Source: a virus
Lineage: Duplodnaviria > Caudoviricetes
Length of the DNA: 64,000 bases
Reading direction: 5' to 3' (one strand)
IMG/VR virus record: IMGVR_UViG_3300028832_000136
Span: 5,338-69,337 of that record
A model generated the notes under the pieces. It made no database searches. It had not been told where the DNA came from and was given only the letters and a program-made list of their open reading frames with translations. A program made the translations under genes and the position numbers. Below, in pieces: positions 26,722 through 28,324 of this stretch; positions within the stretch are counted from its first letter, which is position 1; the number at the start of each line of letters is the position of its first letter.

Positions 26722-26991
26722 ATGTGTTTAGTCTGTGACATAATCAACAACCGTATTCCGAAAGAGACTGCGCAGAAAATCAACGCCGATAACAATCTGC
26801 GTGTTGTGTATGACGCTCTCCGCGGACCTAACTGCGAAGGAGAAACTATCAAGAGCATTTTGGAATACTTCCAAGCTCACAATTGGAAACCAGAAGAAAT
26901 CCGTGATGTTTCCGTTGACTGGTGTAATAAGGTCAAGGAAAAAGCCAAAAAGAAGAAAGAGCTTAAAAAGGAAGCGGCGGTATTGAAATGA
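26722..26991 (+). CDS. Hypothetical protein
   Basis: GAGGT RBS. Confidence 0.7.
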   Translation: MCLVCDIINNRIPKETAQKINADNNLRVVYDALRGPNCEGETIKSILEYFQAHNWKPEEIRDVSVDWCNKVKEKAKKKKELKKEAAVLK

Positions 26992-27218
26992 TGTATAACC
27001 TCAAAAGCGATGAAGACATCAAGCTCGCTCGGGAACTTACAACGAGCGGATTTGACTGTGCATACGGCGTGAACCAATTTAACCATCGCTTGCTTCTAAA
27101 CCTGCACATCAAGACATTTTCACAACTTCAGACAGTATTCGCAAAGAGCGATGCAGACATTGCGAAACGCGAAAAGATTGAAAGTTTGAAGCGTGAAAAG
27201 CTCAATGGTTTGAGGTAA
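26988..27218 (+). CDS. Hypothetical protein
   Basis: ATGA overlap. Confidence 0.65.
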   Translation: MMYNLKSDEDIKLARELTTSGFDCAYGVNQFNHRLLLNLHIKTFSQLQTVFAKSDADIAKREKIESLKREKLNGLR

Positions 27219-27234
27219 TTTTCATCCCAAATAT

Positions 27235-27303
27235 GATGTTTGGCGCCTCAAAAAATTTTTGCCGATAAATCTATTGTCTAATTTTTTGACGCTTTCAAAC
27301 ATC
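27235..27303. repeat. Long imperfect inverted repeat
   Basis: GATGTTTG/CAAACATC, GCG/CGC and TCAAAAAATT/AATTTTTTGA nested arms. Confidence 0.75.
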
Positions 27304-27384
27304 CTTTTTGCACAAAACATACTACTTAGGAAAAATTACAACTCAACTTAAAAATGGCGAAAACTTTGTTAAATTTTACACAAA

Positions 27385-27710
27385 CAAAAACCTATTGCTG
27401 TCTCGGAGTTCAACTCAATGAATTGTCGGTTAAGCGTAGGTCGCCGCGGGTTGAGACGAACCGCAGAAAAAGGTGAAAGTCAGCGAAGTGGAAATTAGCA
27501 GTTTTCACACATAGCCGTCACGCGCTTAGGAAATGTAGTCGGAGTACAGGGTGACCGTCCCGTAAGTTCCTAGTAAGACGCCTTGCATTGTCATACGGTT
27601 CAGCAGTTAGAAGAAAGAAGACATTCACTGCTGTGGGCCGGAGATTTGTAAGTTCCCCACTGGGCTTACTGTCTCCGGTTCTCAGTTACAGAAAGAAGAA
27701 CAAGGAACTG
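27385..27710 (+). ncRNA. Candidate structured ncRNA, family unknown
   Basis: GC-richer ORF-poor stretch after a -10 (TAAATT 27370) with several complementary helices. Confidence 0.5.
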
Positions 27711-27714
27711 AAAA

Positions 27715-27927
27715 TTGTTTTCAAAATACATACATACTTTGAAATTCTCGTGCAGCGGGAAAAATTACACTTCAACGATTGAAGACGATATGCCACACGA
27801 CGAATGGCTGAAGGTTATTGCTCGCTGTAAGACAAAGGTGTTCGGAAACACACTGCAGGTCATTTCGGCAAAAACGGAGGAAAGAGATGAGCAACAAGAA
27901 ATCTCAGATAATTCTGTATCACGCTAA
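27715..27927 (+). CDS. Hypothetical protein (TTG start)
   Basis: AAGGAA at about 27702. Confidence 0.5.
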   Translation: MFSKYIHTLKFSCSGKNYTSTIEDDMPHDEWLKVIARCKTKVFGNTLQVISAKTEERDEQQEISDNSVSR

Positions 27928-28324
27928 AAGCGAAGATATTGAGAATGGTGTCTTGAAGTTCATTATGGACTCTGCACCGTATGCGTTCCGCAGACAGCTA
28001 GTTCTTGTCGGAAACCCCTTGTTCATTCATTACAGAACTCTTTGTGGTTTCACTTCGCATTACTGGAAAGAAATTTTCAGGAAAGACAAAGACCGTTTCT
28101 TGTATGAATGCAAGATCCCAAGAAAATACACGATTAAAGATATCGCTGACCGAGCCAAAACATGCTTCGGTGATTACTATAATAGATATTTCGGCGACAT
28201 CTTCATGGAAGAAGCGCTAAAGATGGCAGACTTGCCATGCTTTGACCAAAAGCGCTATGAACTCGTCTTTCAAAGGGTTCAGAAGCGTCTTGAATTGAAA
28301 CATGAGGCGGATGTATTAAAATGA
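27887..28324 (+). CDS. Hypothetical protein
   Basis: GGAGG RBS. Confidence 0.7.
   Translation: MSNKKSQIILYHAKSEDIENGVLKFIMDSAPYAFRRQLVLVGNPLFIHYRTLCGFTSHYWKEIFRKDKDRFLYECKIPRKYTIKDIADRAKTCFGDYYNRYFGDIFMEEALKMADLPCFDQKRYELVFQRVQKRLELKHEADVLK

Follow-up and report, generated by a model that had tools for sequence, protein, structure and literature searches.

Anatomy of a cow-rumen-2 RNA gene in a giant T4-like phage

What occupies a seemingly 'empty' gap of 670 nt in the genome of a giant phage? The window analyzed here, a stretch of 64,000 nt of DNA, comes from a 69-kb IMG/VR virus record that is 21% complete by CheckV, a value that implies a very large phage. All of the long open reading frames (ORFs) of the window lie on the + strand, and T4-like genes are recognisable among them, namely those of a sliding clamp, the large subunit of topoisomerase II and a cytosine methylase. 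The gap stretches from the end of an ORF at 27218 to the next plausible start codons, at 27801 and 27887. An initial annotation, made from the sequence of the window, had placed here a novel structured RNA of about 320 nt with a promoter of its own. Comparison with homologous sequences indicates that the gap does hold a structured non-coding RNA gene of about 320 nt, on the + strand of a giant T4-like phage. The RNA is a new member of the catalogued family cow-rumen-2 and not a new family; this identity and the multi-domain architecture of the RNA, taken as one joint claim, are held with high confidence. GGAGG-type ribosome-binding sites, intrinsic terminators and −35/−10 promoters suggest that the host uses standard bacterial signals and is perhaps a Firmicute.

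Identity and extent of the RNA

The cow-rumen-2 motif is reportedly one of the 224 candidates described by Weinberg et al. in 2017. When the whole window was scanned against Rfam, a single match was returned, to this family (RF02947), at 27482–27585 on the + strand. The match has a cmscan score of 90.1 bits against a gathering score of 66 (E = 1e-15 for the whole window, 1.3e-17 for the local scan), and it is full-length and untruncated, covering model positions 1–106 of 106. The segment has the same helices as the family, and the single-stranded nucleotides that are invariant in the family (AGCCG, ATGTAG, ACAGG, GACC and CCGTAAG) are all found in the window and are invariant, or nearly so, in alignment A2. 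The centre of the RNA is therefore not novel; the initial annotation had itself named a match to an Rfam family as removing novelty. It could not match the RNA to a tRNA, tmRNA or RNase P RNA, and this was borne out: ARAGORN detected no cloverleaf and no tRNA-like domain with a tag frame anywhere in the window, and a permissive scan of 27150–27950 at E ≤ 5 gave, besides RF02947, only one chance-level match at 14 bits, with nothing credible from any further Rfam family (RNase P, 6S, riboswitches, ROOL, GOLLD, ribozymes, introns). Three tRNA-like readings (a T-loop-like CGGTTCA, a minihelix of 7 + 5 bp with CCA after it and, in the first hairpin of the core, a loop resembling an anticodon loop) were set aside, as the motifs, judged by eye, are lost across homologues. 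The only mention of RF02947 found in the literature is a line in a table of the Rfam 15 paper, which lists two extra covarying pairs (PMC11701678); no function is recorded for the family. A 2023 survey of viral structured RNAs contains no relevant passage on cow-rumen motifs.

Homologues were collected with a 32-nt pattern from the core, which yielded 25 loci in IMG/VR, 37 metagenome loci on JGI contigs, as well as 2 sites that share a contig in a 'Bacilli bacterium' metagenome-assembled genome (MAG), giving 43 distinct sequences. A promoter motif, a 5' domain, a nested hairpin, the core, a 3' hairpin and a pair of direct repeats, here called twins, are common to about 40 distinct homologues on contigs of phages and metagenomes. 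All 16 homologous loci that were rescanned with Rfam scored above the RF02947 cut-off, and their flanks matched no other family. Conservation extends well beyond 27482–27585 in the homologue alignments. The RF02947 model, which is without the promoter, the 5' domain, the nested hairpin, the 3' hairpin and the twin, covers only the middle third of the conserved unit; no other Rfam family covers these parts, and about 215 nt of conserved, covarying flanks, together with the twin repeat, are absent from the 106 positions of the model.

Folding of the single sequence did not differ significantly from that of shuffles (z = −1.33 on the + strand and −0.39 on the − strand), so the evidence for structure is comparative, not thermodynamic. 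The + strand is indicated by G-U pairs that recur in the covarying helices, since these would be A·C if read on the other strand. A blind search for covarying column pairs between domains gave an output swamped by clade-level correlations.

The limits of the element can be seen in its composition as well. The GC-richer stretch pointed out by the initial annotation is a real shift that bounds the element, with 27–28% GC in 27250–27399, 47–50% in 27400–27699 and 36–37% after 27700. At the downstream end, similarity to the close relative L061 stops right after the second twin (...AGAAAGAAGAA), near 27702, and a different gene begins about 40 nt further on. Together with the predicted start near 27383, this limit agrees with the length of about 320 nt first proposed. 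The absence of a credible ORF led by a ribosome-binding site was also confirmed, the overlapping ORFs being only 37, 40 and 64 aa long. All of the motifs quoted in the initial annotation are present where it had placed them, and GTAAGTTCC does occur twice.

Architecture of the conserved unit

The RNA is preceded by a promoter-like motif, AAAACTTTGTTAAATTT (27360–27376, + strand), which contains the −10-like TAAATT (27370–27375) after TGT, as in an extended −10 element. In the window there are 10 sites with the 17-nt motif AAAAYTTTNTTAWATTT, against 0.77 expected; all are on the + strand (539, 23979, 24835, 27360, 32579, 38347, 39959, 42824, 49846 and 51976), and most of the others precede an ORF start, such as that of the sliding clamp (24881) or of topoisomerase II (49897), by a few tens of nt. 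Between the end of the motif at 27360 and the next plausible start codon there are about 425 nt, in comparison to a few tens at the other nine. In the homologues the promoter element is kept at the same offset, with one subgroup reading as a TTTACA-N17-TATAAT-like sequence. Recurrence and constant offset thus support the earlier proposal that TAAATT belongs to a promoter-like element of the RNA's own. It is probable that AAAAYTTTNTTAWATTT represents the early or middle promoter consensus of the phage, distinct from a late type, TATAAATA; because the promoter is unlike the TATAAATA motif that precedes structural genes in relatives, early or middle expression would be expected. Placed about 7–10 nt after TAAATT, transcription would start at about 27382–27385, and the RNA would span approximately 27383–27702. 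No terminator-like site was found in 26900–28100, and most homologues are without one after the RNA; elsewhere in the phage, terminator-like hairpins are about as numerous as in shuffles.

Two minor features were observed around this cassette. A 19-nt imperfect direct repeat (GGAAAAATTACAACTCAAC at 27329–27347 and GGAAAAATTACACTTCAAC at 27758–27776; 17/19 identical, 429 nt apart) brackets the promoter and the RNA. Elsewhere in the window it has only much weaker near-matches; it is kept in the near-identical L065, and L061 has the upstream copy only. It may be the footprint of a recombination event that moved the cassette. Downstream of the RNA, a 42-codon ORF starting with ATG (27801–27927) lies before the ORF at 27887 and overlaps it in another frame. 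Its changes relative to L065 are mostly synonymous or conservative, so this may be a real small gene, in which case the first gene after the RNA would start at 27801.

The 5' domain (27391–27440, + strand), defined by covariation and RNAalifold outside the Rfam model, comprises the helices P1a (27391–27394/27437–27440), P1b (27397–27399/27433–27435) and P2 (about 27402–27411/27419–27429), the last closing a conserved loop, AACTCAA. A covariance model built on this domain (R1) found exactly one copy beside each core, at 44 loci. In the R1 alignment, which is fitted to its model, 93% of cells are paired, in comparison to 78% in shuffles and 32–44% with partners slid; an independent MAFFT alignment analyzed with RNAalifold predicts the same helices. 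In the closing helix P1, seven of the eight pairs change on both sides. A subgroup of homologues (L029, L031, L033, L037, L039, L043, L054 and L056; clusters 13–17) is without a 5' domain of the window's type and was not found by R1; its conserved 5' part is of another kind and longer, for example ...TCCGGAATC..GGTCTTCCTAAAG..GAGGCACC..., and the cow-rumen-2 family is therefore modular. Eleven tRNA genes lie 2–5 kb from the RNA of L056.

The nested hairpin (27441–27476, + strand), likewise outside the Rfam model, consists of an outer helix (27441–27445/27472–27476), an inner helix (27446–27452/27459–27464) and a purine-rich loop. Nearly every distinct homologue has, in the 37 nt that follow the 5' domain, a hairpin of 5–8 bp at a fixed offset with unrelated stem sequences, which supports the inner helix, first described as GCGG(G)TT/AACCGC. 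The outer helix covaries, appearing as TCGCC/GGTGA, TCGCA/TGCGA or TTAGAC/GTCTAA. Two other pairings in the initial annotation were not upheld. Both arms of the long-range TAAGCG/CGCTTA belong to other covarying helices (27433–27435 with 27397–27399, and 27522–27525 with 27577–27581). As for GTGAAA/TTTCAC, the TTTCAC at 27503–27508 pairs with GTGGAA (27488–27493) in an Rfam helix, and the GTGA at 27473–27476 pairs with TCGCC (27441–27445).

The core (27482–27585, + strand) is the segment that matches RF02947, with helices 27488–27494/27502–27508, 27522–27525/27577 and 27579–27581, 27527–27532/27567–27572, and 27540–27545/27557–27562. Across 40 distinct core sequences, 87% of cells are paired, in comparison to 67% in shuffles and 32–40% with partners slid, and the covariation score is 0.57, against 0.17 and 0.07–0.13, respectively; 22 of the 30 pairs change on both sides. 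Within the core, GTCAC (27517–27521) is predicted to form a pseudoknot with GTGAC (27551–27555) on the + strand. This is likely, with support coming mainly from one strongly covarying pair, 27521–27551, which is found as U-A (11), C-G (9), A-U (4) and unpaired (2). The pair 27520–27552 is A-U in 39 sequences and G-C in 1, and 27518–27554 is U-A in 8, the subgroup of the window, and a C·A mismatch in 31. A second, candidate pseudoknot could form between GGCT (27663–27666) of the 3' hairpin and the complementary AGTC of the invariant GTAGYC (27537–27540), both sides being invariant. Four more long-range pairings were considered and dropped, as none had compensation: AGCCGT (27513) with ACGGTT (27595), CCGTA (27560) with TACGG (27594), TTCC in the 3' hairpin with GGAG/GGAA in the 5' domain, and CTCGGAG (27402) with TCTCCGG (27672).

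The compound 3' hairpin (27638–27678, + strand), which was part of the initial annotation, is well supported by compensatory changes among homologues. It comprises 27638–27644/27672–27678, 27648–27652/27665–27669 and 27655–27657/27662–27664, and has TTCC, GGCT and TCTC family-wide. Compensatory changes are present in the pairs predicted by RNAalifold, and in 33 homologues registered on GGCT, CCT/AGG alternates with CCC/GGG and the outer stems covary. The two remaining pairings of the initial annotation fared less well. Homologues do have a hairpin at the site of CAGCAGT/ACTGCTG (27601–27607/27627–27633), although an irregular one, and CAGTT/AACTG is not conserved.

The twin repeat and its copies across phages

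The 3' hairpin is flanked by the two copies of an A-rich, single-stranded direct repeat of 24–26 nt that the initial annotation did not mention. Copy 1 is CGGTTCAGCAGTTAGAAGAAAGAAGA (27596–27621, + strand; 26 nt), which lies partly in the loop of hairpin 27601–27607/27627–27633, and copy 2 is CGGTTCTCAGTTACAGAAAGAAGA (27676–27699, + strand; 24 nt), close to the conservation limit near 27702. In the window, the segments before and after the 3' hairpin align locally with a score of 16 (z = 6.2 against shuffles), and in 36 RNAs the median score of the tail against itself is 11, in comparison to 6 for unrelated RNA tails. The repeated sequence varies by lineage: the window has CAGTTA..AGAAAGAAGA, and two groups of phages have TCAAAACAAAGA and AAGAAAAAAAG, respectively.

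A search with RF02947 found four copies of the RNA in a 424-kb record that is complete and has terminal repeats, another four on a 266-kb contig, two in each of two partial records and one in the 69-kb record of the window. In the multi-copy records the copies are diverged and lie in different gene neighbourhoods, of which there are at least four. In one, a neck-protein gene and a gene for a 620-aa protein precede the RNA and a baseplate-hub gene follows; in another, the RNA lies before two tail-tube paralogues; in a third, it comes after the clamp gene and a gene for a 329-aa protein, as in the window; and in the fourth it lies at a divergent junction. Every copy has the same orientation as the genes downstream of it. 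Among the neighbourhoods examined, no protein family recurs beside all of the copies, and a search with the upstream 329-aa protein gave no matches to a version of the locus free of the RNA. Four cow-rumen-2 RNAs, along with a RegA homologue, are encoded on the contig JAZLKX010000052.1 (266 kb; L027/L028, L068, L072, L076 and L078), which is filed under the 'Bacilli bacterium' MAG. The contig has the appearance of a giant T4-like phage that was binned with a bacterial genome, which may be either a clue to the host or a binning artefact.

Within multi-copy records, paralogues are 73–88% identical in twin 1, in comparison to 52–69% in the core, whereas RNAs of the same positional class from different genomes are 75–87% identical in the core and mostly less so in the twins, with some exceptions. 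In three multi-copy records, then, twins tend to resemble those of the same record more than those of the same copy class, a trend that comes from few genomes, with statistics that ignore kinship, and from which one same-class pair and two records sharing a twin word depart. The record of the window has a single copy, so that the within-genome comparison is drawn from other phages. On the 266-kb contig all four copies have the same twin word, while in the 424-kb phage each of the four has its own, much shorter twin pair.

The twin word could be imagined to act as an antisense sequence against a phage target. It does not occur elsewhere, in either sense, in the window or on the 266-kb contig, where its occurrences are those of the four RNA genes; an antisense target inside the phage is therefore unlikely, and this idea was dropped.

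Possible modes of action

Structured orphan RNAs of such size are seldom encountered, and the small number explained so far carried out unusual biochemistry. The best explanation of the present RNA as a whole is that of a stable, multi-domain RNA that acts in trans and is recognised at its twin sites by a factor, and this composite reading is held with moderate confidence. Its parts differ in strength. It is probable that the RNA is an independent, trans-acting RNA and not the leader of one gene; this is favoured because the downstream genes are unrelated and late-type motifs intervene in structural-gene contexts, and because the RNA is far larger and more knotted than known leaders and is retained as diverged paralogues.

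The main rival is that the RNA acts in cis, as the 5' part of a long transcript that works on RNA polymerase or on its own mRNA, for example by antitermination of the HK022 put type, as a 5' stabiliser or as a processing platform. Several observations are consistent with such a role. Each copy is oriented as the genes that follow, the promoter lies directly upstream, the presence of several copies per genome would suit several transcription units, and in homologues the upstream gene often ends in a clear terminator, a hairpin with a T-run, just before the promoter of the RNA. The missing terminator downstream, in the window and in most homologues, would permit read-through into the following genes, which keeps a role in cis alive. 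However, the genes that follow belong to unrelated families (baseplate hub, tail tube, unknowns) and to different temporal classes, a pattern which, together with the lack of a terminator in 26900–28100, does not fit a cis-regulatory leader or riboswitch. In the two structural-gene contexts a separate late-type motif, TATAAATA, lies between the RNA and the next gene, and no alternative fold that would sequester a ribosome-binding site or a terminator was found. Known put-type elements are about 70 nt long, and not more than 300 nt with pseudoknots. A function as a leader is accordingly judged improbable.

If the RNA is an independent one, it would be transcribed from the recurrent promoter type of the phage, shared with the clamp and topoisomerase genes, and the late type, TATAAATA, would not be used. 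The first two-thirds of the RNA, on the 5' side, are conserved and knotted and would form a fixed scaffold that binds a conserved partner, and the twins would offer two equivalent sites of recognition, binding or cleavage to a genome-specific factor; the RNA could then serve as a scaffold or decoy, or it could be a precursor that is processed to release the hairpin module lying between the twins. These two roles, constant binding by the scaffold and sites for a phage-specific factor in the twins, are suggested by the way in which the scaffold is conserved while the paired tail tends to track the genome. That a genome-specific factor recognises the twins is a tentative proposal and a somewhat doubtful one, and the four different, much shorter twins of the 424-kb phage fit a single genome-specific factor poorly. 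Antitoxin RNAs of the ToxI type (type III) and sponge RNAs of the CsrB type likewise display a repeated short single-stranded sequence on a structured RNA, with a specificity that varies by lineage. The window RNA differs from both in having two repeats only, borne on a large conserved scaffold that those RNAs lack, and it is without GGA motifs; no toxin gene was noticed among the scanned neighbours of the RNA copies.

A bolder extension of the twin-site mechanism is that the RNAs form a programmable class, in which a fixed, knotted scaffold would present two copies of a short variable sequence, alike within each RNA and differing between phages, and the twin would direct the RNA to its target, either a matching nucleic acid or a co-evolving protein. 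Of the four multi-copy records examined, three have twin pairs that are largely homogenised from copy to copy. The idea is speculative and is considered unlikely; if it were true, the RNAs might serve giant phage genomes as self-primed R-loop origins, or act as decoys against sequence-specific nucleases of the host.

Such an origin can also be considered in its own right. ColE1 RNA II and the T4 oriF and oriG transcripts prime DNA synthesis, and they share with the present RNA a layout that is promoter-led, structured, untranslated and without a terminator, in which upstream RNA could pair with downstream template. By analogy, the RNA of twin 1, whose sequence recurs in the DNA about 80 bp further on, might pair there with the template strand; a persistent R-loop formed in this way would prime DNA synthesis. 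This is an attractive minority reading because the direct repeat would allow upstream RNA to pair with downstream template DNA. It would account for a promoter without a terminator, for several copies spread across giant genomes independent of gene context, for a twin direct repeat at each locus, largely purine-rich in the subgroup of the window, and for an AT-rich stretch after twin 2; twins can differ between copies in one genome, a difference that self-templating would tolerate. But the likeness is one of layout, and just the transcript-primed mechanism is taken from T4 and ColE1. Some twins are not purine-rich (e.g., ACAGATGCTTTA), AT-rich sequence is ordinary in such intergenic regions, and the neighbouring genes continue on the same strand in three of the four contexts and do not diverge. 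A primer function is thus a distant prospect.

It is equally doubtful that the RNA is a self-contained machine, such as a ribozyme or a homo-oligomer like ROOL or GOLLD, with no need of a protein partner. At least 10 helices, at least one pseudoknot and the invariant single-stranded stretches GTAGYC, ACAGG, CCGTAAG, GGCT and TCTC would suit this idea. ROOL and GOLLD are likewise large, intricately folded, phage-carried RNAs of unexplained role, and they form RNA-only assemblies (bioRxiv 10.1101/2024.12.08.627333); ROOL was first seen in cow-rumen metagenomes, a phage and rumen setting that resembles the present one (PMC5737381). Yet the window RNA has no match to them in sequence or structure, nor to any ribozyme family even at E ≤ 5, and is about half their size. 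Unlike them, the cow-rumen-2 RNA occurs as several diverged copies per genome and has a direct-repeat tail. No self-complementary loop for kissing contacts was found, and the twins are direct and not complementary repeats, the complement being absent from the RNA.

That the locus is no RNA gene at all, and rather a DNA-level signal or a short protein-coding gene, as the overlapping short ORFs and the 19-nt direct repeat flanking the cassette might suggest, is highly improbable given the compensatory changes in many helices, the strand-specific G-U pairs and the above-threshold match to the covariance model, and the ORFs are not conserved, their frame being broken by homologue indels that are not multiples of three.

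For the window itself, the result is mainly the correct annotation of a gap. More broadly, some of the largest known phages have as many as four copies of an RNA that has been catalogued only as a 106-nt fragment. The full unit, with its promoter, three further folded parts, internal pseudoknot and paired variable tail, is the right construct for experiments and gives curators grounds to extend RF02947.

One recurrent neighbour was observed among the large records. A homologue of the translational repressor RegA is encoded in all five of them, as expected of T4-like phages, and none was found in the 69-kb record of the window; a function of the RNA as a RegA sponge was considered and dropped, since nothing ties RegA to the twin. 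In four large records (G005:C52:203194, G002:C1:123113, G004:C1:32767 and G001:C1:236587), a RegA homologue lies 1.5–4.1 kb downstream of one copy of the RNA, which is probably plain synteny of the structural and replication modules.
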